A stretch of DNA of 63,102 nucleotides, the filler included, from Kipferlia bialata (taxonomy: Eukaryota), in assembly GCA_003568945.1 (NCBI GenBank). It is 6 parts of 6 records of this genome, joined end to end, with 100 filler letters (N's around TTAATTAATTAA, not from the genome) between each part and the next. Parts side by side here need not be neighbours in the genome. Positions count along the whole stretch, not along the records: positions 46,150 to 57,564 come from BDIP01001240.1; 5 more parts are not named here. The stretch is one strand, 5' to 3'. Below are positions 29,317-63,102 of this stretch, piece by piece; the stretch's first letter is position 1, and each line of letters opens with the position of its first letter. A program made the translations under genes and the position numbers. The notes under the pieces were generated by a model. The model was given only the letters and a program-made list of their open reading frames with translations. It did not search any database and had not been told where the DNA came from.

Positions 29317-29643
29317 CTGACGTGTTACTAGGCCTAGTTGTATAGTCTAGCAACAGCATGTTGTGTATTGACAAGAAACATGGCTCAATAGACTAATATA
29401 GTGTGTTTCATTGACAACGCTCTCTCACATATAGAACCTTCAAGTAGAAGAGAAAGAATGTTAATCTATTACCTCGGGCAGTCACGGGTATAGGCTAACA
29501 ATCACTTGAAACAACACACGAATACAAACACAACAAGGGACTTGAATACATAACGCAAAATCAGGTATACAACGTGGCAATAACAATACGAACCAAGGGC
29601 AGTATGACAATCACACTACATGTAGTAGCTGTGTACAGTGGTC

Positions 29644-33190: not shown

Positions 33191-34523
33191 ATGTGTTGCC
33201 GTTACCACTTCCTACACTCGACGAACCTTCAGGAACTGAACCGTGCCGTCTGAGAGAGTCGGGTGTCGTACTGGTGTCAGTGATTGCTACCTCAGAGATG
33301 TGTTAGAGCGATCAGATGAAGTGGGTGGATATACTGTAACATGCGTCATAACCAGTAGTGGACGCCTCTGTCCGAACCCGCAGCTCCCTCCAGCCACCAA
33401 TTCTGCGAGACGATTTCGAAGTATTCATATTGTCGTGATGGAGGTACCTGAAAGCCTTCAGGTACCCGAACACTAAGGTGAAGGAGATGATAGGAGAGAT
33501 CTGGCGAGTTTTTTTGTTCCACATAAGGGTTAGGACACTGATTGGTAGATATATTAGATCCTAGATCTATTGATTGGGCCTCGTGCTGAGACCGACGTAC
33601 GTATGTGTGGACCTGGTATGCCAGTAGAAGCGCTCATGGTGGCTTGTGCATCTGCGAAGAATATGTTCGACGTTCGACAAAATCTATGCTTGATTTGGGA
33701 TTAATAGTACGCAGTCCAGGGACATCAGGCGCTGTCGGAGACTGGCGGCCAGCTCCTCTTCTCACTAGCTGAGAGGGAGCACTAGACGTATACTTCTTAT
33801 TGGTTTCTGCTTGGGTGCTTGGGCTTTTTGCCTTCGGTTCGCTCTAGCCCATCTCTAACTCACTAGATATATATATACGGTGTAGACCCAAAGTTAAATA
33901 TGACCTGTTCTAATTTAGCATAATTTAGCAAGTTGTAAGTCGATTCAACAGAGGTCTTCTCAGACAAGCTGACTCCGGTGTCGGAGTCTCCTTTGAATGC
34001 CAGGTATACGTCCACACCTGGCTGTCGACACTGGGGTTCGGGTTCGGGGTGATCCAGGCCTGTCATGATGTGATTATGAATCGAGACGACCTCTTTGTGT
34101 GTTAAGTCAAAAGGTAAACATGGCAGCAACACAAGGTTTCCTGTATACCATGGATGAAGCGAACTAGGGAACTGCCTCCTTGCTCGCTGATGTAGTTACC
34201 GAGTGTTACCTTTCACAATTCATCCAACCTCTCTATATACACTGTTGCTCCTGACACAGGTCTCGGTCGCACCATGGGTCTGTGGTTCTCTGGTTCGTGG
34301 GAGAGCAGGTACTGCGATGATGCATATGTTCATCGCATTCTCCTTCATACGATTCACGATTTACCACTCATTCTCCGGGCGCCTCCTCTCGGTTAGTTTA
34401 GTTTAGTAATGTGTATGCACTAATACAGGGCACCCCCTGCACATACAGTGAGTGGATAAGTCAGTATCAGTATCAGTATAGATAGTGTAAATACTGACAT
34501 TGATACTGATACTGACACCAGGG

Positions 34524-34623: not shown

Positions 34624-34694
34624 ATCAAACACGTAATCCTCCGACGGAAAAGTTATTATTATTTATATATGTAAGGATATATATATATACATGT

Positions 34695-35740
34695 CAGTGG
34701 AAGCCAAGGGGGGCAGAGAGGAAGACCAAGAAGGAGAAGGGTGCGTGTTTGTATAGAGTACACATATATATGTATAGTATACTAGATATATATATATATA
34801 TATATCATATACATATACATGTCAGTGGAAGCAAAGGGACGCAGAGAGGAAGACAAGGAAGGAGAAGGGTGCGTCTTTGTAGAGAGTACACATATATATG
34901 TATAGTATTCTAGGTATATATATATATATATATACATGTCAGTGGAAGCCGAGGGAGGCAGAAGGGTATGTGTGTATATATATCTACAGGGTTATTCTCT
35001 CTCATTCTGTATACATGTATTTGTATGTATTTCTTACCCCAGATGAAGACATCGCCCTCGCCCTCTTGAGACAACTCCTTCTGTCTCTGTCTCTCTCTCT
35101 GTCTCTATCTCTATCTCTTTATTTATATATGTATATGTATATTGCTGTTACTATACATATCTGATGTCAGACGCCGACATTGCCCACCTCGCCATGTTGA
35201 GAGAGCACCTGCAGATTGGAGCTGATACCACACGGGAAGTGGCCGGTATCCTGAGCAAGATAGGTATAGTACAAGTCATTTAGTGTGTTTGTGTACATTT
35301 CTCTATGCTCTCTCTCTGTAGCCCCTTATTCCAGACAGTGGCATTCTCTTTGTCTCTCTCTCTCTCTAGCCCCTTATTCCAGACAGTGGCATTCTCTTTG
35401 TCTCTCTCCCTCTAGCCCCTTATTCCAGACAGTGGCATGTTCGCAGATGAGGAGGTGACAGAGTCCACGGAGGAGGAGGATAGGTACAGTGGCATATACA
35501 TATGTATGTACACTATGTACTTACACTATTATATATGTATATGTTTATATACTATGGATATATCATTTGTGTTAGGAGGTGACTGACTCCACAGAGGAGG
35601 AGGATTGGTATGGTACAGTACCATAGTAGTTGTTGGTAAAATAGATGAATGCTCACATCTAGGTTTGGCCATGGCAGGAGAGGCAGCCAGAGGGACACAC
35701 CCCATGAGGCAGACACGCCAAGGCCAGAGGTATACACATA

Positions 35741-38194: not shown

Positions 38195-39486
38195 CTCCCT
38201 ACACCTCTTATGCATAGGTCGATGCTTGTCCAGGCACTGTTGGAGCCTCTGTCCTGCTGGCCCTTGTTAGATACGTCCACTCCTGTGCTGCCTTTGACAT
38301 GCACCAGTCCACCATAGACACGGGATACACTCAGGTATATATATGTGTATATACATGTAGATACATATACTATACTATACTATACTACTATACTACTATG
38401 GGTATATATATATGTATACTGGGCTGCCTTTGACATGCACCAGTCCACCATAGACACTGGTTATACTCAGGTATATATATAGATACATATATACATACAT
38501 ATAGAGAGGGTGTAGAAGATAGATGTGGATATACTCTAGATATAAATAGTAGAGTATGTGCTGCCTTTGACATGCACCAGTCCACCATAGACACGGGATA
38601 ATAGTAGAGTATGTGCTGCCTTTGACATGCACCAGTCCACCATAGACACGGGATATACACAGGTATGTAGGAGTATTCCCAGACTCTCTCTCTCTTTCTC
38701 TCTGTGTGTGCATGTGGATACCCATACTAACCATTAGGTCCACGTGTCCCTGACCCAGTACATTGACACCTCTCTCTCTCTCTCTATATATATATGTATA
38801 TTCATACTATATACATACACACACATATATATATGCATGTATGTTCTAACCCTTTAGGTCCACGTGTCCCTGACCCAGTACATAGACATTGAGGATGACA
38901 AGGAGACCAAGAGGCACATCATGTTCCTGAGGTATGTATCATATTATATATATCTGTATACAGTGAATGTAGGAAACAGTCATCAGAATGGCACGTGTCA
39001 ATATGGATATACACGTATAATCAATATTGTTAATTATACTATACTTGGTACGACAAGGAGACCAAGAGGCACATCATGTTCCTGAGGTACCATGGACAAA
39101 TGCTATATATGTATATATATATAAGTATACATATATATCTGTGTATGGACATTGTGGATGACAGTATCAGTATCAGTGTCAGGTTGGATTATGTTCCTGA
39201 GGTGTCACTTTGCATATTTCACATTCATTCCAATTAATTATCCATCTAGTGAAGACATAACTATTATGACATTTGTACATATATCACCTTCAGGAAGGGT
39301 CTTGAGCTGTATACAGTGAATATCTAATAGTATGCATATTGTATACGTTAATTGTATGTATTGAATTGTATGTATTTGTATGTATATTTGTGTCTCACCC
39401 TCAGGAAGGGTCTTGAGCGTGAGCACCACAACAGGCAGAAGGAGAGAGAGAGACGGCTAGAGGGGGAGGAGGAGGAGGCCCAGTGA
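34695..39486 (+). CDS. Multi-exon hypothetical protein, 5' partial
   Basis: Exons such as PLIPDSGMFADEEVTESTEEED, STFLANCLKSMTYAADTVMDVRK, VRYVHSCAAFDMHQSTIDTGYTQ|VHVSLTQYIDIEDDKETKRHIMFL|RKGLEREHHNRQKERERRLEGEEEEAQ, ending TGA at 39484-39486. Confidence 0.65.
36469..36521. other. Intra-scaffold assembly gap
   Basis: 53 N without the spacer motif. Confidence 0.95.
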
Positions 39487-40800: not shown

Positions 40801-41578
40801 GCTTGTCACACTATTATCTGAGAGTTCTCGTGAATAGAATCAAGTTGATGATTCAATCAACAAATGTCCTGATACTGGCCCAGTATTACTGGGTCTTAGC
40901 TAGTATAAGACTGAAACTCTTAGTGAGTCAGTTACCTAGCCACGGAGTGAGGTTGTTACTTTGGGTTTCTTGTAGTTTGAGGCTCAATCTTTGAGCATGA
41001 GTTACTGGACAATGAATCAGTTACTAGTACAGAGTTAACAGTCGACGGTCGGCTGCCGACCATTGACAATCATAATCACTCTCGCTCAAGTCATTAAAGT
41101 ATACGTAGTAATATCAATAATACAACCACGGTAATTCGATTCATTTAGTGAGTTGGGTCCAAAATAACGAATAACAAGCAATGATAGAAAACTGACTGGA
41201 CACAAACATCAACTATACGAAACACCACTTGAGCAACTCACTAAACTCCGTCCGAACCTTCACTGAGCCAACTACTTGAAACATACTATTTCCCATTCCC
41301 CTTCTTCTGTTGAGTGACAGGAAGAGGCAGGGGGAGAGAGAGAGAGACTGGTGCCTCGAGGGCTAGGAAGGGATCTGACTCAGAGGCGGCAGCGCCACTG
41401 AGCTGCTCGACAGGGGCTCTAGCTGTACTAGCAGCACCCTTAGCCCTAGTGGCTCTCTGAGTACGAGTACCTCTAGATGGTACCCGTCCACGGCTAGCAG
41501 GAAGAGAGGAAGAGGTAGCCTTAGCTCCCTTAGCACCACTCGCAGCTCCCTTTGCAGGCCTCTCTCTCTCTCCCCTGG

Positions 41579-44500
41579 TTACCCCAGTTCCTCTCTGCAC
41601 ACCAGTCTGGGCCTTTGACCTAGTGTTGATCGCTGCCGACCCCCTTTGACCTTTGCAGACCCTCTTTGACTATTGTTGACTCTCTTGTCGTCCTGGGACT
41701 GTGGGGTGGATGGGATAGAAGGGGTTCTCAGACGGAGAGTGCCGCCTCTGAGCCACTCAGAAACCCTGGACATTAGGGGTGCAAAGGGAGGAGAATTCAA
41801 TTACAACATAAATATATACAACATAGAATAGAATACAACCAATGTACAATATACATAGAGTACAACCTTCTTTACAACATAAATATATACAACATAGAAT
41901 ACAACAAATATACAATATACAGTGTCCATACCTACTCTTCTTCTGCTTGGACTCTAGCTGGGGCAGGGTGAGAGCTGGGGGTGAGGTATAGACAGTTAGT
42001 ACCCACATAGAGAGAGAAAGAAATGATATCTTGTGGTAATGAATATTACTAATACTATTATTACTAATAATCCAGTAGCAATACAACTAACCCTTAAGTA
42101 TCCTCTCCCCTGCGTCAAAGACTCTGCCTCTGGACACGGCATCGGAGATGACACCTGTGAGTGAGATGCTATATGACGTATACAACTATATATGTATATA
42201 CATGCTATATATATGCTATATAGTATATGTACTCTGCCTCTGGACACGGCATCGGAGATGACATCTGGGGGTGAGTTATAGTCAGACATGATGTATAGCA
42301 ATTATATTTGTGGTCATATACAAGATGTGTAGCGATAGTACTCTGCCTCTTACACAGCATCTGCGGTTACTAACCGCCGGTTAGGCGAATTTGTATATAT
42401 ATACGAATATTCAAACATACTAGTTGTTGCTAGAATGTAGCACATATATATATTGGGGTCACAGCACAGTGAGATACCCACCGAATAAACGAATATCATC
42501 AGTACTGCTAATATATATATATATATTTATATAGTTATATAGTGTCTGTATATACGCACTCTGCCAGGTGGGGTCACAGCAGAGTGTGGTCACACTGCCT
42601 ACCACGATCAGTCTGTCCTTGGCCCTAGTCAGTGCAACATTCCTAGGGTGAGATGAGGTCATATATATATATGCATATATATAAAGAGAGAGAGATATAG
42701 AGAGTGAGATGTCCTTGGCCCTGGTAAGGGCAACATTTCTATGAGTAAGGGAGATACATAACATGAGGGAGAGAGAGACACATATGGATAGAGAGAGAAA
42801 GACAGTTGTGTACGTACATTCTTCTAGGATCTCTTGTGAACCCCAGGCTACCTCTGCTGTTGGACCTCACAGTGGTGTAGATGACAATGTCGGCCTCAGT
42901 GCCCTGAGATAAGAGAAGGTATATAGTACTCTAGTATAGTATTGATAGTTATATAGTATATTGCATATATATAGTATGCCAGTGGTGTAGATGACAATGT
43001 CAGCCTCAGTGCCCTGGGGATAAGTAAGAGGTATAGGTATATAGTCCAATATACAAGAGCATTGTATCTAGTATTGTGTTATATAGTATATAGTACAATA
43101 TATTTATATGAAATATTACAAAATACAAGTGGTATGGAAGTGTAGATGATAATGTCTGCCTCTGTACCCTGATGATAAATGTGGAAGACAGTATATACTA
43201 CTCATAATATATACTCCTACTATACAAGACGCCATCTCCCCATATCTATCTTGAAGACTCATATGTATGTACCTGTGACCCATCTATTGTGGACACTGTC
43301 ACTCTGGACAGGGTCCCACTCACATACTATAACACCTTACACTCATATATATACAATACATTTATGTCTATAGTGTACCTGTGACCCATCGATAGTGGAC
43401 ACCGACACTCGAGATAGGGTGTCAGTCCAGTGGGGCTCCTGGGGGATAAGAACACAATAACCTACAGTAGAGGGATCTGTGGCATACAGAAGTGCACACC
43501 TATATCTGTATATAACAATGAATACCTTGTTCAACAGATGGGAGATGAGCCTAGTCTGTGCCGGATAGGGGCATAGTACCAGCGTCCCCATATATATATA
43601 AATATATATATAAGTCTACACCTATATTTGCATATATCAATAAATACCTTGTTCAAAAGATGGGAGATGAGCCTAGTCTGTGCCTGATAGGGACACAGAA
43701 CCAGCATCCCCATATATGTACATATATATATAACTCATACCTTGTTCAACAAGTGCGATATGAGCCTTGTCTGCGCCTGATAGGGACATAGTACCAGCAC
43801 CTTCTTCAGGAGAGAGGGAGAGAGACAGTCCAGCAGAGATAGGAGACCCAGGACACAGTTGGCCTGGTGCCAGTTGAAGATGGACGTGCCGTTCTTATCC
43901 TACAGTGAGTATATGAAGATAGAGTAAAGAACACACACATATATTCATATATATACTATTAATACGGTACCTTCTCCTCCCTGCCATCAATGTCCAGCAC
44001 TGAATAGTACAGAAGAGTACCGTGAATGAACACTGTATATATCTACATATAGATATGGATATCTACATATGTAGTGTATACTCTTCTAACCCTACCTTCT
44101 CCTCCCTGCCGTCAATGTCCAGCACAGTGTAGTGTTGTAATTCATACAAATGACCACTGTATCTATATACACACATATAAGTCATATCGCTAACAACTCT
44201 ACCTTCTCCTCCCTGCCGTCAATGTCCAGCACAGTGTAGTGCCCCAGTCTGGCGCAGGATATGGGCTGTATGCCCTGGTGCAGAAGTGCCCTGTCAACGG
44301 CATCTGTCACACCCTCTCTCTCTCTCTCTTCTTTAGTACTCTTGGTACCCTTGGAGTCCTTGGGACTGGTAGAGATACCAGCGTCCACCCCGTTCTTAAT
44401 CTTCCCCCCGTAGAAGAGTAGGTTGGGCGTCCTCAGGATATCTGGGTGCATACGGTACTGGGTGTCGAGGAGAAGGACCTATCGTTAATACATAGTAAGT

Positions 44501-46049
44501 AATCATATCTGTTACTAAGTTACAATATATACATATACTATATATGTACTATATGGGTGCATACGGTACTGGGTGTCCAGGAGGAGGACCAGGAGGTGAA
44601 CTATACATATATAATCTAGTGTATACATTCATACTGTATGGATATAATAGAATCATACGTATACTGCATGGATATCACGCTCCACATGTGTGAGAGTCTA
44701 GAGACAGATGATACTACGCGCCAAACCACAATTCATGATATACGCACCTCTCCCTCTCTCTTGACCATCCTCTCCATGAGTGACACTCTAAATGCAGAGG
44801 ACACGTCGGACACAAGGGTGGGTGGTAGCTGGTTGTGGTCGCCAAACAGACAGACAAAGGGAGCAGCGAGGCCAAGGAGGGTCTCCCCCTGGATGTTAGA
44901 ACGAGAGAGAGAGAGAGGAAGAGAGAGAGAGAGGGGTGTATCCTGAGAGTCGCATGAGAGTCTATATTCGAGGTGAGTGTTAGACATATCCTCTACATAG
45001 TCACACAGAGTCATACCTCCGAGGTCTGTCCTGCCTCATCCACGTACACGGCATCAAACGAGTGGGCCAGCTGTGACAAGAGAGACGCCAACGATACCGA
45101 GTGGAGAGACGTGAATGTGCTAAAAACCACATCACTTCTGTAGAGGGCATCGAACTTATCGTCGCCCTTAGGAACATAGCCCGGTCTGCTAGCACCAGAG
45201 ACCCCTCTCTCAATGGCACAGTCCTAAGGTCAGTGTATGTATAATAGTACATCATCAGTAGTATCCATAGTACCAGTATCACTTCCCAAGTATCAGTATG
45301 TAGGGTTTCTGGGGTACATATCAGTGGCAGTATCATAGTGAAACACAGCATATAGTCTAACCTTGGCAACTGTATATATATATATATATAAAATATACAT
45401 AAATATATGAATATATATGACTAACCTTGGCAACTGTGCTGAGGTGGAAGGGACGCAGCCGGGGTCTTACAGACTCAAACACACCCACACGCAGAAGACG
45501 CACGGGTTTAGCTGGGATGAGACCGATTGAGAGATACAGTAGTAGCAGATAACAGAGGGTAATACAGATATAATTAATATACTGTATAGCGTATTAAGTG
45601 AACATATATAATACTATACTACGCGATATATACCTGGTTGCATGGCGTCTGCCCACTCCTTACAGGCTATGAGGCAGTTATCAACGGCCTTGTTACTCGA
45701 ACACACAACCAGTACCCTAGGCCGATCACGCGGTGTCTGCTCCTGTCTCTTCCTCACACGGTCTGGAGTCATTAGAGACTACTCAATGGAATCGCGTAAT
45801 ATTACTGTGATATATGGTGAAGTATACCTGTCTGGGAGTACCGCCTCCCCCCCTTGTTCAGCACTAGGGAGAGAATGCTGGCTGCCAGGGTGTGGGTCTT
45901 GCCAGTGCCAGGGGGGCCATGCACCATCTGGAGTACGGGCTGGGGTTAGTATTATTAGTTAGTTGAGCATTAGACATAGTATCCACAACACAGCACCTGT
46001 CTCTCCGTGACTGTGTCGAACAGGGAGTATATCCTGGATACGGCACTAT
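41579..46049 (-). CDS. Multi-exon Upf1/DNA2/senataxin-like superfamily 1 helicase, 5' partial
   Basis: Motifs in order: HGPPGTGKT (~45897-45923), VCSSNKAVDN, VYVDEAGQ, FGDHNQLPP, LDTQYRMHP, LCPYQAQ, STIDGSQ|GTEAD, RRM|NVALTRAK. The C-terminal end is uncertain (41579 or 41286). Confidence 0.92.
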
Positions 46050-46149: not shown

Positions 46150-46421
46150 AGGAGGGTGCTGGCCAGGGAGATTGCCGCAGAGGGATTCATGCACTCAGGT
46201 ACACCCTTCTCCCTCTCTCTCTTTCTCTCTTTCTTTCTCAATCTCTTGGCATATATATAGGACAGTCTTTTGTTTACTATTCTAACCCCTCAGGCCTTGA
46301 CGTTCTGGTGGCCCCTGAGGCCAGTGTGCTACTATTTGCGGCACTCACTGTTAGGCCCCCGTCCAAGGGCAGCAAGGTCCAGAGGGGGGAGGGAAGGACA
46401 CTCCCAGGACTCGTAGAGTGA
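46150..46421 (+). CDS. Last two exons of a truncated hypothetical gene
   Basis: RVLAREIAAEGFMHS, intron gtacac..ctaacccctcag, then GLDVLVAPEASVLLFAALTV..LVE-TGA. Confidence 0.55.
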
Positions 46422-47079
46422 GGGTCGCTGCTCCTTAGTACCTTCATTGAAGAGTACTATAGGTAGACTCTGCTCTCTTACATACAATATGAATACATGG
46501 TGTGATTCTTCACCTGGACCTCATCTCTCTGCAATTGGAGAGTGAGAAATTTCAAGAATACAATAGAATCTAATATCGACACCACTCATTGGGCCAGACC
46601 AAGAAATGTTTGAGTTGACATCCACGTCGGGCAACTACAGGTGACGTCCCCTGGTTGGAGGCAAGTACTGAAGTTCACGCAAATGTGTGAGTGTCTGTGT
46701 GGCGTTCCTCTGTATGTAAATCACTGGTGGGGGGCAGAAAGAGACTGTATCTATGATCATTGTGACTAGCAAACGTTTATAGTACATGATATACTACAAT
46801 ATATATACATACTAATAGTATGATACTATATACTATATACTGCAGCCTACACTCCGCATTACACCATACAAGTTGTAAAGTTTAGAACTCTGTTTTCCTG
46901 TGTTTTGATGGCGTCAGAAGTCCTCTACTAATTGGGACTGTAGAGAGAGAGAAAACTGCCACTGTAGTGAGATGGTAATCCTAGGGTCACCGTAGCCTGT
47001 GGCAGAGGTTTGAAGTCTTTGTCTCTCTTCCAAAACCTCACTCGTTTACGAATACACTGCACCCAGTGTATATACCCAC

Positions 47080-48033
47080 ATGCCTCTGAAAGAGTGGTAT
47101 GACCGATGTGTTGTGGCAGTGCCTGAGATCACGTACCCATATCAGCTACGATATTTCCCTCAAGTGGTCGCTATAGGACACAATGAGGCTCTGTTGACTT
47201 ACTATGTATACGGAACGGGACACATCTGGAGACTACTGACCATCCACGACGACCATACTGTTACACAGACAGCACATAGAGTACCGGCATATGTGTCCGA
47301 CATGGAGTACCCTTCGATAGTCAAAGTGCAGGAAAGTATAGTTGCCTGTGGATTCAAGCGCACACGTGGACGTAGAGACAAGTTTGTTATGGCCAGATTC
47401 GACTGTATTCACAAGAAGTGGGAGAGTCTACACAATCTGTCGGGAAGCAAACCTTTTCCGAGGGAGTTTCCCAGCTTGTGCACAATCGGGGACTCTTGAT
47501 TTCTTCTTGGTGGTGGAAACAACGTTTACGGTGACGATTCAACCGATGTGTGGGTATGGGATGCTGACACGTGCACTTGGACCAAGGGTAGAGACCTACC
47601 CAGAGTGATCTCCACACTTGATGCAACAATCTCTATCAATGAGGATTGCATATTTCCAGGCCGGGAGGGATTCAGTTTGTCACTGCGCAACGGGTCTCTG
47701 AGACAAGAGAGAGAGCAGTGGACCTTCCTGTCCACGTGTGAACCTGAGCCAACGATTGCATTTGCTTGTCTAGGATCCGCCTATCAGCGCCTTCTCTTGG
47801 CCTGCCCAGGTAGAGGGGCAAGAGATGATGATATGGACACATGTGTATGTTTGTATGACATAGTATCTGGCGACTTGACGCCTTGTGAGTCTCTCCCTGT
47901 GAGGTGCAGAAGACGGAGAAGTATATCTGCTACTATGATCAACCCCTCTACTGCTATTGTGGTCGGTTACAAGGACATGGTTGTGGTGGATGTGCTGCCA
48001 GAGGTGCTGGGTAGTAACTTCTACAGCGAGTAA
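47080..48033 (+). pseudogene. Intronless Kelch-like gene interrupted by one in-frame TGA
   Basis: ORFs 47080-47499 and 47548-48033 share a frame. Reading through TGA 47497-47499 gives CTIGDS*FLLGGGNNVYGDDSTDVWVWDADTCTW, an intact Kelch repeat. Confidence 0.75.
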
Positions 48034-48621
48034 TGAACGGCATTGTCACAATGGTTGCAGACTCTATGTACGTCACTAATAGATTTCTACCAGTATCAAG
48101 ACAAGTGGGGACTTGGCTGTACTTTACTGTCATTGAATAGCTAGAATATTAACAATACTGAGAGGTGATGTTTGAAAATTATGGTTACACTACGGCGGGA
48201 AGAGTTAGCAGTAGCGCGTAGACGCATAATACAGGGCGTCTACTATCATAATGGTAGGAATCAATTGATTGTGCAGCGATTCACCTCTATTGGTGTTCAT
48301 ACAAATGAGTTCCATTCTCGCAAGAGACATTCTCTCTTCTCAAGCATTGAGCCACTTCTCTCACCACTGCAAATGTCAGTGTGTGAAGCTCTATTTTCAC
48401 TCCTCCACCTTCAGCAACACTGGACATTGAACTTACACTACTGATATGCTCTCCCTCCCATAATCTACTCTATTCGTTTTCACAAATGTGTCACATATTA
48501 CAGAGAGAAGTAACTCACATATAGTAAGTGTATCACGACTATAGCTATTAGTCCGATATGCTCTTTCTCACATCCTCCACACTCACTGTGAGTAACATAG
48601 CGACTATTACGACTATCAATG

Positions 48622-51145
48622 TTAGTCTGATATGCTTTGTCTCACGTCCTCTACCGACACTGTGAGCAGCATAGTGAGGGGTGTCTCTGGGAAGTCGGGG
48701 TGGAGGGAACCCAAAACCAGCACTGTGTCTGTGGTGAGAGGAAACTGCAAGATAGCCATGTGAACACGCACTCATTCCAAAATAACCTCAAGGGTCAATA
48801 ATGTATATGTTGAGAACAATGAACACAAACCTAGGAGAGTATTGAGGGTAAAGAAGGCCCTCCTCGCTAAACATATATCATATACATACTCCTACGATAG
48901 GACCTATCACCTTCTCCGAGTGTGCATGAGGTGGTACAGGAATGTATATATATGTATACATGACAATATGTATATATAGAGAGAGATACAGATACCCACC
49001 CTCTCCGAGTGTGCATGAGGCGTAGTGGTATACGTATATATATACTTATATATATACTAATATCATCTTAAAGATACTGTTAACGATATACAACTATATG
49101 TATAGCAATAGAGATACCCACCCTCTCCCAGAGTGCATGAGGTGTAGTGGTACAGGTACTCCTCTCCCTCGTAGGGTATGGCTGCCAGCTGCTTGCCCCA
49201 CATGTGCCTAAGGTCAGAGAAGAGGATATGGAGAATATCAACTATCAAAGGAGAGGAAACAGAGACTGTGCTATGATTCTGCCGCTGAAGACACAGAGTG
49301 AGTTAGGAGAAATACAATTTGAGAGAAATAGACTACCTGTCACCATGATATTCATAAACAGCCGCCTCGCAAATAATACTCAGTGTACTCATACACTATT
49401 GTGTACACATTACCTCTCAGTGTCGTATCCATAGACTCAACAACAACCGAAACAAGTAGTATAGTATACATGTATAATGTGTTGTATATTTACCTCGCAG
49501 TGTCGTATCCATAGACTGCCTCCTCAGTGAAGCCAAGGGCAAGGTTACCAGGTAGGGCCTGCTAATGAGACTACTATCGATACTGTATATAAATTATGTA
49601 CTTCTGAGGATGTTGATAAATGAATATGGTATAGTAGAAAGTATTATGGTGAACCCAAGAGCAAGGTGACCAGGTAGGGTATGTTACTAGTAGTGAGAGT
49701 ACTTCAGACACATATAGATTATGTACTTGAGTTTGTTGATATATACTTTATCACGCGAACTAATACCCAGAGCAAGGTTACCAGGTAGGGCCTGTTAGCA
49801 TGAGAAGAATATAGGAGATACTGAAAGAGAGTGAAGCCAATTGAAAGGTTTCCAGGAAGGGCCTATTTGTGAGGTAACATGTGTATGTTGGACACACTAA
49901 GAATATGAACAACTAGAACCCGTTCTGAACATGTATGGGTACGTGTGTATGTATTGGTATTGTGCAGGTGGCAGATTCAACACAACGACACGGCGATCCT
50001 AGAGGGTAACTGAAAACAACAGCACTTCAGCCTTCAATATGTGTGGATTATTTGCATATAGTGTACATACTAACCTGGAACCCATTTGGTCCCCCTTTGG
50101 GACCACCGAGGGTAGTCCAGACACATGGGTGTTAGAAGATGTATCAGTATCAGTATCAGTGATACTGATGTAAATATACACTCCAAAAGATACAACCAGG
50201 GTGTAGTCCAGACACCTGGGTGTTAGAAGGTCATATGTAGACATGTGTATATAAATATATATTAATACAATAGTATATGTAGAAATGAGACTGCAGAGAT
50301 CAGTAGCCAAGGAAGAAACGGAGGCAGCCCAGACACTTGGGTGAAAGGGTAGGATGCATAGGAAGTCGGAATAGTTACCCATAACTAGTGAGGAGTAAGA
50401 AGCAAACGACATACCTTCAGGTGATCTGCAGAGGGCAGAGCATACTCTATATGCAAACGCACATATACATAATCAGTATATAAGTATACTATACACAGAG
50501 TATATATCTACATCTTATACCTGCAGGTGCATCAGCAGTGGACAGGGCATACTCTGCGTGGTTACCATGAATATAGTATACATATATACTATATATACTA
50601 TACACAGTATAGGAAAATCATATTACCCTCAGGTGCATCTGCAGTGGGCAGGGCATACTCTGCATACTATATACATTCACATATATATACTATATACAGT
50701 GTATATGCCATATGTATACTATACACTGTATATGGATCTCTATATAGTATATACCTCCTGGTGCATCTGCACTAGGCAGGGCATACTCTGCGTGGTAGTC
50801 ACCATATATACAATACACATATGTATCATCCTATATATACTATACATTATATATACTATACACTATAATACACATACCTGCAGGTGCGTCAGCAGTTGGC
50901 AGGGCATACTCTGCATGGTAGTCACCAAAGGCATCATAGGCATGGCCCACAAGATGAACACGGCTTGGGTTAGAGACTATAAGAGAGAGAGAGAGAGAGA
51001 GAGTCACCAAAGGCATCATAGGCATGGCCCACAAGGTGGACACAGCTGATAGTGAGAGACGAGAATATGAGAGAGAGAGAGAAAGAGAGAAGTAACACTG
51101 GCATGGCCCACAAGGTGGACACGGCTAGAAGGGTAAGAAGAGACT

Positions 51146-51187
<42 letters not shown>

Positions 51188-54100
51188 CCGAAGGCATCAT
51201 AGGCATGGCCCACAAGGTGTACGTGACTTGGGTTAGAAGAGACTAGAAGAGAGAGGGAGCGAAAGAGAGAAAGAGAGACTTAAGACGTAGACATGGTCAC
51301 AATGTGCAGACAGCTGCTAGGTGAGGGCAGTCAGAGTTGGTAAATGACAGTGAAGTATGCATGTCAGTCCAGCACACAAAAAGGCATGTCACCCAGGAGA
51401 TAGTGAGAGAAAGAGTATTTTACCTGTTCGAATAGCCTACTCCGAACATGGTCCTCTTGAACTGTCCATCTGTGACCGGCTCGTCATCCTCAGCAATATA
51501 GAATATGTGTATATCATAGACTATCTATACTACTAGATACCTGTTCGAATACCCGATTCCGAACATTGTTCTCTTGAACTGACCATCTGTGACAGGCTCA
51601 TCATCCTCAGAGAGAGGTGGTGGGTTGGCACAGCGCTTGTGTTAAGAAGCTAATCATCATATGATATGTATTTGTATAATGCTGTAAATAGCTCTATTTC
51701 TCTGTGATACATCAGATACACACCTTATTGTCATGTCCCTTGTGTTGCATATCATACATACTCTATAACACGCCATACGTCACTAACAATATAAATAGGT
51801 GCAATATCACAAATATATGTGTAACTATGAATATACCTTCCAGGACATGTCCCTTGTGTTGCATATCCATGCCTGGAGGCACTTGTCCTGGGTCAGGTTG
51901 TACTTGCCAAGGATGACAAGGAACTAGGGTCAGCCAAACATCATCTGTATTTCTTATATATATATTGGTATTTCTTATATATACTAGTAACTAATATGTA
52001 TGAATGTTTAGTGAGATTAGATATATACCTCTGTATCTGATATGACCCCCGCCTTTCTAGGGCATAAACCATAAATATTCAAGTATATTCCATATTCTAT
52101 ATATATTTCTATATTCTTAGTATTTACATTCATATATACATATGTAGTCACATACTTCCGTGTCTGATATGGCCACTGCCCCTCTAGGGCATACATGCAT
52201 ATATATACCAGAATATTCCATTCTATATATAATTCTATATATGAAGTATTTACATTCATATATACGTGTATAGTCAATATATGTCACATACCTCTGTGTC
52301 TGATATGGCCACTGCCCCTCTGAGGCATAATGCATTCACACATATATATACTGTACTATATTGATATATATGTATAATATATATATAAATATCTGCATAT
52401 GTAGTATATATATATATATGTACCTCTGTGTCTGATATGGCCACTGCCCCTCTGGGGTATCTGACAGTGGGGCCCTGGGAGTGAGGGTATATAAATATCA
52501 ATTGCTATGTTGTATATAGAATATAGTATATTAGATAATAAACCCACCCCACATGGTATGCTCACTGCGCTGCCTCTATCTCTAAAAGTATACGTGAGCT
52601 AATATATATACTATATAGACACAGTGTATGACTCTGTCTCTCTGTTTGTCTCTCTCTCTATACATTTAGTGTACATAAATATATACTATGTAAACAACAT
52701 CTCACCTCAGCTCCACAGGGTACAGCCTCTATCCACTCCTCTGTCTCCAGTGAGTACACATGCACACATGGGGCAGACACACATATATAAATATATACCT
52801 ATATATATTACTAGGCCGAGTATGTATATATTGATACCTCACTGCCACATGGAATGGCCTCTACCCACTCCTCTGTCTCCAGTGAGTACACGTACACAGA
52901 TGGGGCAGAGATACCACCCTCTCCCTCTCCCTCACCATCTTCTTCGGGCTCAGTGTCCTCAGCTGTGGATAGCTGAGAATGAATATTAGTATTACAGATA
53001 AAGTATCATAATAAACAGTATATTACTGATATTAGTTACAAGGGACATTCAGTGTTCGGTTAAGTTCAATACTTCCCATACCTCATCCTCCTGTGTCTTG
53101 ATATATCAATATCTGAGAATATAATGAGTATATATGTGAAAAGCATACACCATTCAGTATCCGGTATATATATCACTATATATCACTATATATCACTATA
53201 TGTCACTATATATCACTATATATCACTACATATCACCTCATCGTCCTGTGTCTTGATGACCCTGCCCCCGTCAAAGACATAGACCTGATCGATTAAGAGT
53301 GAGTAATAGTATATATATCGCATAAGTATGATACATAGACCTGGTCGAGTAAGAAGGTGGGAGAATCAAGATATCGCGAAAGTATGAGACTTGTATGACC
53401 TGATTGCGTTAGAGTAACTCTGACTCAGACACACGATAAGAGAGGGTGAATAAATAGCTGCACACACACCTTGTCTACCACACACACTCCAGAGGTATGT
53501 ATATATATACTTCCATATATACTTACATATATGTGTATTGTAATACATCTACGTCACTACTTAATAGTAGCACTGCATCTACATACACACCTTGTCCCCC
53601 AGACACACTCCAGATGCCACGCCACTGAAGGGTGCAGAGATGGCCTTGGTTTCCAGCTAGGGAGTGAGATAACTGGAGAGATATGTATATATGTATAGCA
53701 TTAACACAGTATCTTCCTTCTTGTCCCATAAGAGTGTGCCAATGTACATATATATGTATAATACTACCCACATATATATAGTATATATATAGTATAGTCC
53801 CACTGAACTACTTGTTACCTCTCTGTCCTCTGTGAGTGTGGCTGTGTACACTGTGTTGGGGGTGCCTTTGGTAGGGTACTCCTCGTTCCAGCCTTGTGGG
53901 TAAGTATGTATATACACACAAATACTTATAGGTCTGGAGAGAGAGTGAACTGGTAGAAGTAGTGGAAGGGTACTCCTCGTTCCAGCCTAGATGAGAGAGG
54001 AACGAAAAGAGAGATAATCACACGTATCAGACAAAAAGACGGAATGGGTAAAGTATGTATATACATATACATAGTTAAGATGATATGGGACAGAAGCCCA

Positions 54101-54224
54101 AAAGCGAAGTATGGGTCTAGAGAGAAAGAGAGAGAATAGTGTTACTACATACCTAGCAGCATGGCCGAGTTGTAGTGCATATACATAAACATATATACAC
54201 ACACACAGACATTAACATACATAA

Positions 54225-54260
<36 letters not shown>

Positions 54261-54472
54261 TATCATGTTCCTGCATACCTAGCAGCATGGCGGGTTTGGA
54301 GTGCATATACATAAACATATACACATATATATATATTTACATATATATATATAGAGAGAGAGAGAGTATGATGATCCTGCATACCTAGCAGCATGGCCGA
54401 GTTGGGACCGGTCTTGATGCAGCTGGGGAGTGAGACATATGTATCGATATGTATATATAGTAATATATACAC

Positions 54473-54506
<34 letters not shown>

Positions 54507-57490
54507 TCCTGATGCAGCTGGGGGTGAGGCATATGGGTACATTTATACACTCATATATATATATATATATGTATGTATGTACAGAGAGAGAGAGAGGGAG
54601 AGAGAGACAGTCTTGATGCAGTTGGATAGTTAGATGAGAGGGATACCTAAACATATACTCTGGATCCTGATAGTTTTACAATTGCCCAGTCAAGGAAAAC
54701 TAAGAATGACGCAAAAGTCTTTGGGCGTGATTGACACACATAGGAGTAACATGCAATTAGTAACTGTGTACTACAATCAGGGTGAAATGATACTTGTCAC
54801 AAAACGTGTAACGTACTCGTGGCAGAACTCGGGCCTCTCCACAGACAGTAACCGGCACTCACAGATCTCACCACTATCTCCCTCACCCTTTGACTCTGTC
54901 CCAGTCTGTGCCTTGGCTGGTGGTTAGCACACTGTAAAACGTATATATATGTTGCTCTATATACTATTTGGTGTAAAATTACTTACTCTCCACTAACTAA
55001 AAAATTGGACATAGACAGTGAAGTTAGACAAGGATTAGTGGAGGACAGGTTGAAACTTCCAGAATGTATTTCTTTAGTGTAGATAGATATAGATAGATAT
55101 AGAGAGATATAGAGAGATATCGGTACACAGACGTATATTTCCAAAGTTACCTGTCTTTGTACTGGTAGGGAAACTACTACTACTAGGATCGATAGGATAT
55201 ATAGAGTATGGTATATATAATGTATATACATATATAATGTATGTGTATACCTGTCTTTGTCTGGTGGGGACACTTGTAGGGTCTGACCCCGAACTGTCTG
55301 TGTAAGGAATATGTATAAAGAGGTATATATATATATATATACAATGTAGTAGCAATTAGCAATACATGTGATGTATATAGAGGTATATATACATGCACTT
55401 GCCTGTGTATCTCAGTGCAGGCATCGCAGTTGAGAACGATATTCTTCTCGGCCTGAGACATTAGTATATTCAATATCAGTGTTCTATATACACTCTATTA
55501 GATATACTCCGATTATCCAAGTAATTACTAATGAGTGAATTGTATTATGTTTGGATTACAACCGTGCGTCTCACCAAATATGTATATATATCTATATCTA
55601 TATTCACCTCTGATACGTGTGGGTACAGACTGCCATAGAACACTCTTTATAAATATATATGAATGCATATATTGTACCAAATATTGTCTTATAAGTATGC
55701 ATGTACGTGTGTTCACCTCTGACACGGGTGGGTACAGACGCTCTGCCATGGAACAAGGGCGCGTGCATGTGGTGAGTAAAACGAGGACACACACACATAT
55801 ACATACACATATATATAAACATATGAATATATATGTGATATGTATATATATGTATGTATTAGTGTATATAGATAATAGAGAGAGAGGGTGTGTAGCACTT
55901 GTGGTGAGTAGTAACAGGATGACACATATGTATATAGATATAAGTATGTATAGAATAATAATATCAGAGAGGGTGTGTAGGATAAAATAATATTAATTAA
56001 TACACACAGATACATAGATTACAGAGAAAGGGGGCGGGAAGCACGCGTAGAGTCACGAGGATGAAAAGAGTATCTAACACCAATAATCCCCTGTACACCC
56101 AGTAAATATGTCTCACTACTTCCATACCTACGGATATGAGGCCACATCTGCCAGCTGCCTGCTGTCTATCGGCCTGAAGTCAGAGTAATGCACTAATAAT
56201 ATAGTATGTATTAGTCAATATAGTGAAGGTGAGACTATTAAATGTCCAGAGTATAGTATTTGTATGTACACATCTCTGCTCCGCAAGTGTGTACATGTGT
56301 GTAGTGTGTAGGTGATAGTATATAGTATATGAACAGTGATGACTGTATCCTCTCCGCAAGTGGCTAATGGTTGGGGACTCTGCCACAAAGACACATGTAT
56401 ATATTCATATATCATTATTAGCTTGCTATTACTATTGTTATAATTGTAATTCTGTTATTACTACAGTATTATATTACTATTATAGTGATAATTGAATTAT
56501 TGCCTCCTCTTCACTGGCCAATGGCTGGGGACTCTGCCACTGTGATACACATACAATACACTATTAGATTACCTATTAATGCTATTTACTGTACTAATAC
56601 CACTATTACTACTCTTACCTCCTCCTCACTGGCTATTGGTTGGGGACTCTGCCACTTGACTGGAGGCCTAGGCTGCTCCTTCTTCTTAGGTCTCAGACTC
56701 ACATCTATGGAGAAAAGGCCTAACGGTGAGACGCTGAGACGCTGAAACGCTGAGATACCTTTACTATAGGGTACACGTAGGGTATACCTGTGACAGGAGG
56801 AGCTCCCCACACTGTCTAGGAAACAGGCAGCCCCTATCCCACACTATATATATGAGTAACGCCCATCTCTATACATATGTGTACATTATTCTAAGAACAT
56901 GTAGTTTGTTCTATAATATGATAGAGTGTATACCTGTGACAGGAGGAGCTCCCCCCGGATTGTCCAGGAATGAGTATCCCCCTGGGATAGGGACGGGTGG
57001 GAATGGCAGGCCTGCTGGCCAGTTGTCGGGGCGGGGGGGCCTAAAGGTAAGATCAAGTAAGGGGAATATATACAATAGTATATATATGTATGAATGTATA
57101 TATATAGTAGTAGTGTACATATATATACACATGTGTGTGTATATGTCTATATCTGAGGAGAGAGAGAGTGAAAGAGAGAGCGAGAGGAAGGAGATAACTC
57201 TGCCATCTTCTGGGGACATTGCAAACTAACATGCAGAATTATTGTTAACATATACATATATATGATAGAGAGAGGAGCCAAAATATGTATATATATACTG
57301 CTTTAGAACTCACCCAGCTCTGGGAACATTGCAGGGGGCATTGACGGCTTGGGATCCAAAGGTGATGGAAGGGACAGGGGGGGCTTGGGTGAGTATAGAT
57401 ATTACTATGATTACATATATATATATGTGTGTATAGTGTGTGAGAGAGAGAGAGAGAGAGTGGGACCCAAAGGTGATGGAAGGGACAGGG
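48622..57490 (-). CDS. Multi-exon Kelch-like protein with Pro-rich and Cys/His-rich N-terminal part, 5' partial (could be two genes)
   Basis: Exons VYVFDGG, VYVYSLETEEW, RGAVAISDTE|FLVILG..AWICNTRDMSWK, VYGYDTAR|HMWG. Last exon FPLTTDTVLVLG..VRQSISD-TAA at 48622-48624. Upstream exons include RPPRPDNWPAGLPFPPVP, LNCDACTEIH and RPYKCPH. Confidence 0.7.
53167..53236. repeat. 10-bp minisatellite (TATATCACTA) x ~7
   Basis: Direct tandem array inside an intron, with 1-2 substitutions. Confidence 0.9.
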
Positions 57491-57664: not shown

Positions 57665-57677
57665 GTGGGGGGGGGGT

Positions 57678-57711
<34 letters not shown>

Positions 57712-57978
57712 TATGCAACCCGAAATAAGAATAGACTACTATCCACACATACTGCATGACCCAATACAGATAGATAGCTTGGAGGGAGTGTATGCCACAT
57801 CCCAATATCGGTGTCAAATCTCACTTCTAATCATTTGACTGAGGCACACCCTGCCACCTATATACACTCCACAAGTACATATACGTATAGAACGTCCGTT
57901 ACTACCCACCTGTCCAGTGGGTTCTCCTTTGGTTATTGAACAGGAGGCAATGGTTGGTTAAGAAGACTGGCTGAGCGG

Positions 57979-58317
57979 TCAAGACGTTCTTGATTTAGGG
58001 CACTTGATTTTTGAATCTAAATCAAGTTGTTTATGCAATATGGTTGTTCTTCTTAGGTCACCTAACTTTGGTGATCCACCAGTTGTATTGGTCTCTGTCC
58101 CATCCCGCGAGACCGGTTGATGAGAAAGACAGTTCCTAACATATTTCTGTACGTGTGAGAGGGTAATTATGTGCCCTCTAGAATCAAGATAGGAGGCTAC
58201 GAACTGGATCTGCTCCCAGTGAATGTATTCTACCGCACTCCTTGTTCCCAAAAGGAGCGCCACGGGTTCAAACCCTAGACAAACCGAGAACAAGCTCAAG
58301 GATACAAACGGGAACAC
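57979..58317 (-). mobile_element. Possible decayed pogo/Tc5-type transposase DNA-binding fragment
   Basis: YLDSRGHIITLSHVQKYVRNCL..GGSPKLGDLRR..HKQLDL loosely recalls a CENP-B/Tc5 HTH. No DDE domain or terminal inverted repeats seen. Confidence 0.2.
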
Positions 58318-59509
58318 TTCCCAGGTTTACCATGCCTGATCGGTGCCGACGGATATGGATACCCCGTCCTCAGCAAATGACTTAAGCCTGGTCAATTATG
58401 ATCATTGACCCTGATCTCACTTCTTTTTCTATCTATCTCTCTCTCTCTCTCTCTCTAGGCCCATATCCGGTATATCATATACCTGGGTATATGATATACC
58501 CAGTAGGGCTTTCCCACACTATAACCCTCTTGCAGCGTGGTTTTCGCTGTGTCAGTAGCATCTCTATATACCCACCAATTTCTTCTTTCACAAGTCATGA
58601 CAACTATTTCACCTAGGGCATTGACTGTCAAGGCCGCCTTGACAAGATATAATACAGCGGTATTGCTCGAGACGTGTCTCTAGAGTAGTGGATATACGTC
58701 GCTAACAATATGTGTGTCTTGCTCCTGACATATATCACAAGGTACTCTTATACAGTGTCACAAAGGACAGCGTGTATTCAGGTTGTCCTCTACCTCCTCT
58801 TCATGGTATATATGTTTGTATCTCACCCTTTGTCGGGCAATGAGTGTGGCCCGCCGACCTACGGCACAGTCTCATACACCATCACCCTTACACTCGCTCA
58901 ACTATCCCCTGCAGACAACCATCAAACTCCACAAATGCTGTACCTCCAATAGAACTCCACAAGAAGGGCAGTATAGACAAATATATTGCGATGGACTCCA
59001 CAGGCTGTGGAGTCTCCACAACTACTTTAGATCCTTATACGTACCATTGTGTATATTGTTAGAATTCTAGATCTATATACTGTCATAATGATAGTATCAT
59101 TGGACCATACCAATGAGACCAGTCTCCAGTTTTGACGTTACTCAAATGGCCTTTACAGACTTTATGTAGTCCAATAATACATTCCGTATTCATTTATCGT
59201 CATTAGTTAGATCATATTGTATTGCAAGTAGGTTCGCTGTGAATATCTCCACCTTGAATGGATTGGGTTTTGAAGTGTGTCCCATTGCCAAACCCAATGC
59301 AATATATACATATAAGATGTATTACATATAAGATCTAGATATCCTGTACATATGAAAGCCTTATGATCTACATCGGCGCATCCCAACTTCAACAACTCAC
59401 CTTGGTATGATATCAATGGTATCCAGTATACACCGACCTATACTCAGGCCCACACTACAAATGTAGCGCTCAGCTAATACAGATGACTCTTCTATTCACT
59501 TCAGATCAA

Positions 59510-62500
59510 TTAGGCTAGTCGCAGGAGCCATGCTAAAAATGCCTCAGAGTGCATCAGATCCGCCACAGTACTCGCTGCTCCACTAGCTGACACAAGGTCC
59601 CCTGCATCACCACCAGTCTCTACGAAGCCCATAAAACTACCAGAATCAATGGGACTCCACGTGTCACCAGAATATAGACGCATACCCATCTTGCCGTCAG
59701 ACCCAGTGGATGACAAGATGGATGTCTCGTAGAAACTGGAATAGAACACCCCGACGCGATCCTGGTCAGAGTCTGCAAAGAGTACACTCTCGCCAAGAGT
59801 CATTGTGTTGTCACTGGCCACAGTGACTTCTCGAACCATGCCCCCCTGGTTAACGTCGGAATAGCGAGATACTACCAAGAACGCAGCACGAGAAGGGTCA
59901 TATGATATACCAATCACAGCTCCCGACTGGGAGGACATCAAAAGCCTACTACTAAACGAAATTGTGGTGCCCGATACAGTACCAATACGAATATACGTAT
60001 AGATACTGCCGCCAGAGTAGACAACCATCATCTTCCCGCTGCTTGGGTCAAAGGATGCTGCCAAGGATGTTGCGTATGCGCCGTCAATCTCAGTATTGAT
60101 AGTGCCAAGGGAGATTGTGCTACCAGTGACAGAGACAGTGCGAGAACGCCCATTGTAGTTCAGAATGGCGGTGTCCGACACAGAGTCATATGCCAACCAC
60201 GGTTGTTGGTAAGAACCAGTATGGAACAGAACCGGAGTCCCAAAGAGTACCGTGTCGTCTGCTTGCACTGTGGCAGTCCGGATATACTGATACATATATG
60301 TAACATCTACATTGTACGCGATCAATGCATTTCCCGATGAAGCATGATACACGCTATGGTGGATGTACATGTTTGGCGTTGGTCTGACATCCCCATAACT
60401 ACTCGGGACACCGAAGACGAGCGACGTTCCAACTACCCTCATAACTACAGCGTATCCCGTTCCAGTTGAGCCGGACTTGACCGAATAGACAATCACAAAA
60501 CAGTCGTTACCTTCGTCATATGTGACGTATGGAGATATGACCTGCGATTAGATGAGGAGCAAATGACTTACTCAGTTGTCAATGAGTTCAATGTATTTCA
60601 GCACAAACATGGCGATGCAGAAGGCAAGAGAGCATGCCTACCTGATCAGTGATTGGTGCAAACTCGTACTCAGGATGGTATAGCACAGTCGCCCCGATTG
60701 GATCAGCGACTCGTGCATACGACCCATAACCTGTGGAGTCTGTATACACCACCACAATACTACCGTGGCAATCCTCGGCCATCGACACATGATCATTGCC
60801 AACAGCTCTCCTAACGGTAGAGTCAGAACCAAAGCCCTCTTGTCTTGACTTCAACAGGTTTAATGACCCTAAGGGTGAGCATAGTAGTAATGGCAGCATC
60901 ATTTCACAAAGATCACACATTAACACATACCTAATCGGTTGAGGACCACTGCATCTCCAGTGGCGAGAGACTCGGCTGCTGGAGCTGTTATGGGAACATT
61001 GACGTCTGCAAAGACCCGGCCACTGGGAAGATTGGCTACCACTAGCTCTGTAGTGCTTAGGGCAGTTCCCACAAACTGTGACGGCGACGTTGCCATGGAT
61101 AGAGAGAGGGATCCGTTCTGTAGAACATAGTAGTCCTTTCCAACTATCAGCCCAGACTGGTTCCCAACCACGGTACCACTTGTCCCGATGTGCACATCCT
61201 GTCTATCACTTGCCGATGCAGTGGCGAGACCAATCAGACTGCCACTGGTCAGGTTGGACCATACGTCGGTGTGATATGTAAGGGCGTATCCCTGGTGTGT
61301 CGAGTAGATATTGTGGGACACCACCATGCACTGCGAGGCATGGTTGTACACAGCGGTAGGGGCATCGTCGCAGTCACTGGTTTCAAACACAGTGGTGGTA
61401 CCATATGTGAGGGTGTTCCCAGATACTACTGCGGATACTGAGCTTCCATAGTAGCTATTTGCATTGTCTGCGAACACAATCAGCATCTGAGCGGTCTGGG
61501 GATCGTACACCACTGCTGGCTTGCCAATATTGCCTGTGGAGAACTGGTATGCGGCCCCAAAGGATATGACCCCGCCAGATATGGTGGCCACTCTGGCTTG
61601 TCCGGTGGTGCTTCCACCGACCTCCTTGTACACCACCACCATACTCAGTGTCACAGGGTCAATGGCAAGGTCGGTCTCCTTCGTCATGACCGAGTTGAAT
61701 ACAGTATCTGACCCTAGGAAGACACTAGTGCCACTGACGCTGCAGAGGCGGGCGGTGCCATAGTCACTGACGTAAGAGGGTGAGGGGAAGAAGTATAAGT
61801 AGTAGTGAGTACACATTACTAGGTTACCTGTTGCCATTGTCTCTGTACAGTAGCACACTCATGTTGTGTGCAGCGTGGTAGTGAATGCCTACGTTGTACT
61901 CAACCGAATCAGGCACAAGAGTAGGGGTCCCAAAGGTGATAGTAGAGCCTGATACAGTGCCGGTAAGCACATATGCAGTGTTTACCCTCGTAACATGGGC
62001 TATCACCACCTTCTCAGCGTGTGAGTCGTATGTGATCTGCGTCTCACGCCCAGGGACCGCACTGAACACCACAGGGGTCCCACAGGTGATGTCGCCAGCT
62101 GTAGATACTGTTGCAACCACGGCCGTCCCCTCGTCTCCACTGGATAACTCGTTGTTGTACACTATGACGAAAGAGTCATGGGCCTGATCGTACACAGCCT
62201 TGGGTCGCATTGGCTGAGGTGAGACAAGAATTGCTGCAGCAACAGTCTGCTTTATGATGTAAGGAATATATGTGCACACATAGCGACACATACCAGGTCA
62301 GTGGCTGGTGCAAACATGACCTCAGTCCCGTAGATGACAGACTCGCCATCGACCGTGATGAATCGAGCGTATCCCTGCTGTGTTGTGTTGTCCTGATACA
62401 CAGCCAGGACACCGTCACCATTAGCAGCCAGGGAGACACGAGAACCTCGGAAGGTGCGTCCAATATCGGTGGATACCCCATACCCAGAAGGATACTCTGA

Positions 62501-63102
62501 GACAGAGCTGACAGTGCCTTGGGTGAGAATATTGATATGTGAGTAACATCCTTTCGATGCGTGTTAAGGTGTATTTGTGTAACACGTGTCGAGGAACCTG
62601 TAACCACACAATGACTTGTCTTTGGAAACGAACTACGTACCATCTTGATTTAGAACCAGAGCGTCTCCAGCAGTCACTGCCCCACGAGCTGTCAGAGAGA
62701 GACCACCGGCAGTAGGGACATCTGCCCAGTCTGCACTGCCGGCACCGTCAGTCAGAAGGACCTGGTATCAGTAAATACACCCATACATTAGTATTAATCA
62801 GTATATGTATTGACAGCGTTTTAGAGATAGTACCTGTCCGGCTGTTCCGTCCAGAGATGGCAGAGAGTATGTCCCGACAGTGAGGTCAGAGAAGGCCCCG
62901 GCTGCTGGAGTGGTGCCTCCAATAGCTGTCCCGTCAATGTGTCCCCCTACTATGGCAACCTCACCCAGGGCACTCTGTGCAGAGGCAGGTGCCACCTGCA
63001 GCTCTGTCTCACTCACTGCCAATCCAGCCAGCACAGGTGTGACAGAGGTGGTGACAGTGCCATCCTCCTCGACATAGTATGTGGACCCAGGTACAAGGCC
63101 GC
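59510..63102 (-). CDS. Intron-containing protein made of tandem phage virion/tail-fibre-like beta-rich modules, 5' partial (~1030 aa visible)
   Basis: Exons 62834-63102, 62641-62761, 62294-62517, 61828-62213 (alternative in-frame acceptor at 62246), 60931-61766, 60642-60868, 59510-60541. All six introns are GT-AG and phase-consistent. Repeats of the type YD....vvv.Y.....G.vSGttitFGt. Confidence 0.85.

Follow-up and report, generated by a model that had tools for sequence, protein, structure and literature searches.

Two similar coding ends in tandem, with the protein sequence conserved, are found where alternative terminal exons arise by tandem exon duplication. An integrating element can also replace the 3' end of a gene, as e14 does in icd of E. 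coli, and the displaced last codons, silently diverged, then lie downstream. The closest described parallel to the repeats discussed here is the amphioxus mirage, a short tandem duplication of an exon edge, on the donor or acceptor side and of tens to about 160 nt, as reported for Adh3, the globins BflGb6 and BflGb9, TnC and PGBD5 (PMC3087553, PMC3902484). Mirages often keep their GT or AG and leave normal splicing undisturbed, and their origin is called unclear in these accounts (PMC3087553, PMC3902484). The word 'synonymous' does not occur in the main text of PMC3087553, where we looked for any mention of silent-site bias. Internal gene duplication has been put forward as a route of intron gain (Rogers; Gao and Lynch 2009, as cited in PMC3087553).

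Kipferlia bialata is reported to be diploid from k-mer peaks, and the main text of the genome paper has neither 'duplicat' nor 'alternative splicing' (PMC5874029), while the part of PMC6679479 that was available covers only the spliceosomal proteins of the species. In the main texts of openly available papers we found no report of such repeats, or of a silent bias in them, in Kipferlia or other protists, and in the literature searched there was no precedent for the density of copies, the silent bias or the stop-codon case described below.

The window, meaning the whole 63,102 nt stretch of K. bialata DNA analysed, is a chain of contigs of about 11.4 kb with N-padded linkers, and the repeat that is our starting point sits in the contig at 46150-57564. 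The last 16 codons and stop codon of a gene (48622..48672, minus strand), which we call the live copy, are followed in the 3' UTR by a recoded version of themselves (48548..48598, minus strand). We refer to such copies of exon ends in adjacent non-coding DNA as echoes. The two differ at 10 of 51 nt in six codons, of which five are silent (live/echo CTG/TTA, TCG/AGT, GTA/GTG, GAC/GAT and TCA/TCG) and one is a replacement (CAA/AAG, Q to K), and 15 of 16 residues and the stop are kept in the echo. An earlier note on this DNA had described the pair, and its positions, strand and silent codon changes, including CTG/TTA and TCG/AGT, are all correct. It had taken the repeat to be the last 17 codons, which holds for the coding copy, but the actual unit is larger. 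It is a tandem duplication with a period of 74 nt (48531-48603 against 48605-48677, 78% over 73 nt by blastn) that includes about 21 nt of 3' UTR. The non-coding part of unit 1, at the start of the 3' UTR (48601..48621, minus strand), has two weak AGs, at 48612 and 48603, that would place the echo in frame, and differs from that of unit 2 (48527..48547, minus strand) at 8 of 21 nt.

The alignment of live copy and echo scores 62, a level reached by none of 5000 flank shuffles (maximum 28). Given 10 differences, the probability of at most one amino-acid change is 5e-6 for changes that all lie in a neutral echo, and 0.0006 when silent sites of the live copy are allowed to drift as well; the latter rises to about 0.05 on allowing for the choice of this pair among the most silent-diverged of 91 echoes (pS 0.53). 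Switches between TCN and AGY serine codons affect 2 of 90 serine codons across the echoes, and that in the stop-codon echo is thus rare but not unique. Stop-codon readthrough was considered and rejected, as there is a second stop one codon on and the period is not a multiple of 3.

A protein search with the frame of the last exon gave a single protein (P0001, 410 aa), labelled KIPB_005342 of K. bialata, which identifies the Kelch-like host gene; the Kelch matches of P0001 are weak and below Pfam cut-offs. The gene (48622..57383, minus strand) is modelled with 21 exons in one open frame, with 30 echoes at its exon edges, and its 5' end probably lies off the contig. The last five exons are backed by the joints and a loose end of an RNA contig, and the other exons are models only. 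Two runs of one sample cover the region, of which X1 is DNA and X2 is taken as cDNA because its pieces join at GT..AG. X2 comes from the same sample as the possible source of the window DNA, and does not represent an independent individual.

The X2 contig (1880 nt, placed on 46150-50500) is spliced at GT..AG over 50124-50074, 49557-49493, 49206-49122 and 48728-48457, with no differences from the window. The second-last exon (49122..49207, minus strand) has a phase-1 donor and two donor-side echoes, at 49036-49000 and 48933-48913, and is joined by the GT..AG joint 49122>48728 to the coding part of the last exon (48622..48728, minus strand), which ends in RQSISD-stop, as does P0001. This joint sets the first copy in frame, and the echo follows within the same exon, 90 nt short of the end of the RNA contig. 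The 3' UTR runs over 48457..48621 (minus strand) as far as the RNA contig (X2 record 10) extends, the end of a contig not being the end of a transcript. Three joints and the loose end bypass every echo in the introns concerned, minor forms being invisible in contigs. As far as contigs allow, then, both copies are on one molecule, since record 10 covers 48728-48457 with no other letters and no gaps, and it is the first copy that is joined to the upstream coding sequence, the echo being kept in the 3' UTR (rare isoforms are beyond contigs). The view of the earlier note that echoes do not depend on splice sites also finds support here, as the repeat lies across the stop codon, with the echo remaining in the 3' UTR of the spliced RNA contig.

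Two other features of this region may be recorded. Introns 50125-50877 and 55767-56127 of the host gene (minus strand) appear to end in AT and not AG, with CAT preceding the first G of the exon. For the first of these the RNA contig gives support, as a piece begins at 50124 and the loose end fits the exon ending at 50878, and for the second the support is frame continuity only. AG is kept at the matching place in the upstream echo in the case of 50125-50877, and probably also for 55767-56127; the database protein P0001 takes other sites at both introns. Kelch-like ORFs at 47080-48033 (plus strand) converge on the host gene, and their 3' part has other copies in both runs.

To place the stop-codon repeat in context, 75 exons of four genes were curated by coordinates, the last exon of a helicase gene being dropped before counting as it has stops in the model. 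Gene models A, B and C were curated by hand without RNA, with two phase joins that failed to close, and an automatic exon chain took echoes for exons and served as a guide only. Exon ends were aligned to the adjacent non-coding DNA with a threshold of 32; in 3928 cross-gene controls the 99.9th percentile was 30 and the maximum 33. In all, 91 echoes were obtained, at 66 of the 150 exon boundaries, on the donor or 3' side in 41 of 75 exons and on the acceptor side in 25 of 75, and at one of the three stop codons examined. The period to the nearest echo ranges from 36 to 232 nt (median 109.5), and across 71 introns each echo goes with about 96 nt of additional length (rho 0.72). Among echoes that extend as far as the boundary, 39 of 41 on the donor side retain the GT and 21 of 23 on the acceptor side retain the AG.

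In a self-comparison near-diagonal repeats were present in four regions of the window, with almost none in the remaining regions. The contigs at 1-11447, 23090-34523 and 57665-63102 have few or no echoes (one is at 27332-27436) and the introns read there are short, so echo load differs strongly between genes. Three stacked echoes at 34660-34965, at the start of a contig with their live exon off it, were excluded from the count. At 38545-38655 there is a 100%-identical 55-nt duplication within an echo array, which is a very young unit.

The silent bias seen at the stop codon extends to the echoes as a group. Pooled differences between live copy and echo number 78, 66 and 226 at first, second and third codon positions, over 1161, 1167 and 1163 sites, giving a divergence of 19% at third positions and 6% at first and second. 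The pooled dN/dS is about 0.17, as against 0.5 for a neutral echo beside a fully constrained exon. It stays at 0.13-0.23 across all trimming and kappa settings, is 0.18 for the 66 nearest echoes alone, and is low in each of the four genes (0.04-0.24). The silent share of differences is 0.66 where 0.42 is expected for a neutral echo (binomial p = 2e-13, with echoes of one array counted as independent). The silent bias is real, and beyond both chance and neutral decay. Individual examples are a donor-side echo in the same host gene (51424..51491, minus strand), with 6 silent and 1 replacement codon in 22, and two donor-side echoes in the AAA_12 helicase gene (43526..43706, minus strand), with 8 silent and 0 replacement and 7 silent and 1 replacement codons in 19. 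This superfamily-1 helicase gene (41287-46049, minus strand), named for its AAA_12 match, has the lowest echo dN/dS of the four (0.04).

Many echoes are identical or nearly so to the live exon, and 18 of the 73 with at least six silent sites have no silent difference (the per-echo lists omit the 18 of 91 with fewer than six). The 20 echoes with third-position divergence of at least 0.25 have a mean of only 0.05 at first and second positions. Third-position divergence is correlated with that at first and second positions across echoes (rho 0.35, n = 75), so age contributes to echo divergence too. Overall, divergence among echoes is similar in amount to divergence between echo and live copy, and the differences among echoes are also biased to third positions (29 of 189, against 15 of 388 at first and second). 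Some pairs share differences, the two helicase echoes at 43526-43706 having six silent differences from the live exon in common; concerted evolution among inner units is a trait of mirages. In arrays of at least three, the changes confined to a single echo number 6 silent and 6 replacement, which looks neutral, on small numbers.

There is little in the sequences to suggest that the echoes are in use, and it appears that they are mostly unused. Internal gaps break the frame in 16 of 17 cases, and the periods fall evenly over the three frames (24, 22 and 20 for remainders 0, 1 and 2). A branch point and AG in front are absent in 52 of the 57 donor-side or 3' echoes. Reading through intron and echo as an in-frame insert was rejected as a general use, as only 11 of 65 nearest echoes are in frame and open. 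The earlier note saw in the stop-codon pair a sign of protein-level constraint on a non-coding copy. There is indeed a protein-level signature that goes beyond chance and neutral decay, but the data do not favour constraint acting now on that copy, as there is no frame protection and the acceptors available to it are poor. Constraint inherited from a time as coding sequence on another haplotype would fit better.

We think it probable that the repeat at the stop codon is a dead duplicate of the mirage type, which carries a silent bias inherited from coding life on a diverged allele. The events that we envisage start from the short tandem duplications, which sit at 66 of 150 boundaries with a median period of about 110 nt, each adding about 96 nt to an intron. 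Such duplications would survive only astride an edge between coding and non-coding DNA, be it donor, acceptor or stop, because the extra copy there falls outside the protein, and the splice site itself would not be the trigger. The differences between live copy and echo are three times as frequent at third as at first or second positions, and we suggest that each copy derives from a different haplotype, in a diploid species with very high polymorphism, and that both would therefore have been under purifying selection for most of their divergence. This could come about by out-of-register exchange or template switching between homologues, with pairing possible only in exons, or by later replacement of the live exon through allelic recombination with the echo left in place. 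Both the capture from an allele and the molecular route are inferred. Once captured an echo would decay neutrally for a brief period (about 0.02-0.04 changes per site on average), gain frameshifts and fade. Silent-biased differences among echoes would be expected from separate captures, made from different haplotypes or at different times.

The DNA run gives some information on a probable second haplotype. There are alternative paths at 46246-46508 and 46500-48011, of equal depth, with 6-13% substitutions and long unalignable stretches, which may be read as pointing to very high heterozygosity. One is an equal-depth bubble at 46301-46508, with 15 substitutions and 6 gap bases in 208 nt, and a 2980-nt X1 contig is collinear with the window from 46500 at a depth of 464 versus 485. 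In a neighbouring ORF a stretch at 47843..48011 (plus strand) can be compared with this contig (X1 record 6), probably from the second haplotype, and differs from it at 12 of 55 third positions (22%) and 7 of 110 first and second positions (6%). These rates are indistinguishable from those of the echoes (Fisher p 0.61 and 0.84), in a comparison that is one 169-nt piece of another gene, possibly a paralogue, with 19 of 22 differences listed and censored at 85% identity. From the pooled values, inherited coding divergence comes out at 0.16-0.20 and neutral age at 0.02-0.04. A toy simulation, with parameters of our own choice and meant only as a consistency check, gave dN/dS of 0.12-0.33 with allelic silent diversity of 0.10-0.25, and 0.36-0.74 without allelic input. 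The stop-codon echo has more than twice the mean divergence (pS 0.53; UTR 8 of 21), and for it the allele model needs a deep allele. An allele with the echo sequence as its live end was not seen in protein and metagenome searches. The X1 run gave no coverage at 48048-48923, and the other 1565 nt of its record 6 could not be aligned to the last exon, which carries no weight either way because a filter drops some records. In scans of metagenomes with P0001 none of 119 pattern matches was confirmed, and a scan with a helicase exon gave 79 distant loci, at 30-76% identity over short stretches, and no close relative.

Other explanations of the silent bias have to be set against capture from an allele. 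A close cousin of it is that arrays expand and contract by unequal exchange, each copy being at times the live end with replacements purged while it is live, a model in which, unlike capture, the echoes would return to use. Mirages are unstable in length, even somatically (PMC3087553), the splice dinucleotides are kept in nearly all echoes that reach a boundary, and the two host-gene acceptors that read AT have upstream echoes that keep AG, as if roles had shifted. However frequent exchange between neighbours would also erase silent differences, and these persist: 29 of 189 third positions differ between near and far echoes, no fewer than the 26 of 189 between near echo and live copy. Frameshifts are also common in echoes, and we consider such swapping of roles unlikely. 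Plain slippage on one chromosome followed by neutral decay, with the stop-codon pair looking recoded only as the best of many, would account for the 18 of 73 echoes without silent difference, for the 6 silent and 6 replacement private changes, and for a single-pair P that goes from 0.0006 to about 0.05 over 91 echoes. It is rejected by the pooled data unless live exons mutate several-fold faster than adjacent introns, since the pooled dN/dS is far under the 0.5 floor of that model and the 20 echoes most diverged at third positions are so little changed at first and second, and we rate it as quite unlikely.

It has also to be considered that the stop-codon echo is a working alternative C-terminus, selected today and reached through a minor 3' splice site or a frameshift. 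The residues and stop that it keeps would be in accord with this, and it is in frame with the phase-1 donor at 49122 through any of the AGs at 48612, 48603 or 48744, a one-in-three chance, with the shifted frame open through the last exon. An in-frame branch point and AG also lie ahead of it, which is so for just 2 of the 57 echoes, but the branch-like motif is simply the Asp and stop codons. The AGs at 48612 and 48603 (scores -2.8 and -5.8) are below all 73 real AG acceptors of the window, and that at 48744, which leads to the stop of the echo too, is weak at the 8th percentile, against the 89th percentile for the used acceptor of the last exon. The RNA contig has only the 48728 joint, though contigs drop rare forms, and the other 90 echoes share the bias without having such sites. 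We thus think a working C-terminus improbable, and the stop-codon echo is likely untranslated. A paralogous Kelch-like gene as source of the echo is suggested by the Kelch-like ORF that adjoins the host gene and has other copies in the DNA run. However three protein searches gave P0001 or nothing (they are word-based and weak) and so yielded no close paralogue as donor, and the same bias is present in the helicase gene and two unrelated genes, which makes this source very improbable. Finally, two haplotypes could have been joined head to tail by mistake, as the genome is heterozygous and has many simple repeats and its assembly is fragmented. The spliced RNA contig spans both copies without difference, and as their longest run of identical bases is no more than 9 nt the tandem cannot be put down to a misjoin through word overlap; we see hardly any chance that the repeat is an artefact.

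Affected genes have about one echo per intron, and the case at a stop codon takes splicing out of the explanation for mirage-like repeats, which makes the origin of mirages testable. The finding draws its weight less from the single stop-codon copy than from how dense the echoes are and from a link to allelic diversity that can be tested. The echoes bear on intron growth and cryptic recombination in metamonads, they show the spliceosome choosing the outer site among stacked near-copies, and they show where gene annotation in the Kipferlia genome may err. They also caution against taking a low dN/dS between tandem copies as a sign that both must be in use. A more speculative possibility, which we put forward tentatively, is that a genome-wide process in Kipferlia places exon ends from one homologue next to their counterparts from the other, or moves them into and out of service, such that nearly half of the exon edges of long-intron genes would carry a stack of past alleles and echoes would be spare splice sites and gene ends. 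If true, the history of alleles could be read from introns and UTRs, and a free-living metamonad would provide direct evidence that recombination between homologues is heavy.

With regard to the known systems, the alternative terminal exons resemble our case in that the second copy is in frame with the upstream donor. However at the Kipferlia stop codon only part of an exon is copied, there is no credible acceptor ahead of the copy, and in the RNA contig both copies belong to a single exon. Unlike the situation with e14 and icd, there is no mobile element between the copies, and the spacer of about 21 nt is itself part of the repeat. As in internal gene duplication, partial copying within a gene leaves exon-derived sequence in non-coding DNA, but there is no new intron here; existing introns have grown by about 96 nt per echo, and the divergence between copies is allele-like. 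The likeness to amphioxus mirages is much closer. The 74 nt of the stop-codon unit and the nearest-echo periods of 36-232 nt can be compared with mirage units of about 10-160 nt, both ends of exons are affected, GT is retained in 39 of 41 donor echoes and AG in 21 of 23 acceptor echoes that reach the boundary, and splicing is undisturbed in that the joints of the RNA contig skip all echoes in the introns concerned. Mirages are described from a handful of lancelet genes, whereas here 66 of 150 boundaries are affected, in a fornicate protist. The defining feature of mirages, spanning of an exon-intron boundary, is present in the other 90 echoes, but the stop-codon unit spans the stop inside one exon; it acts as a mirage does without strictly belonging to the class.
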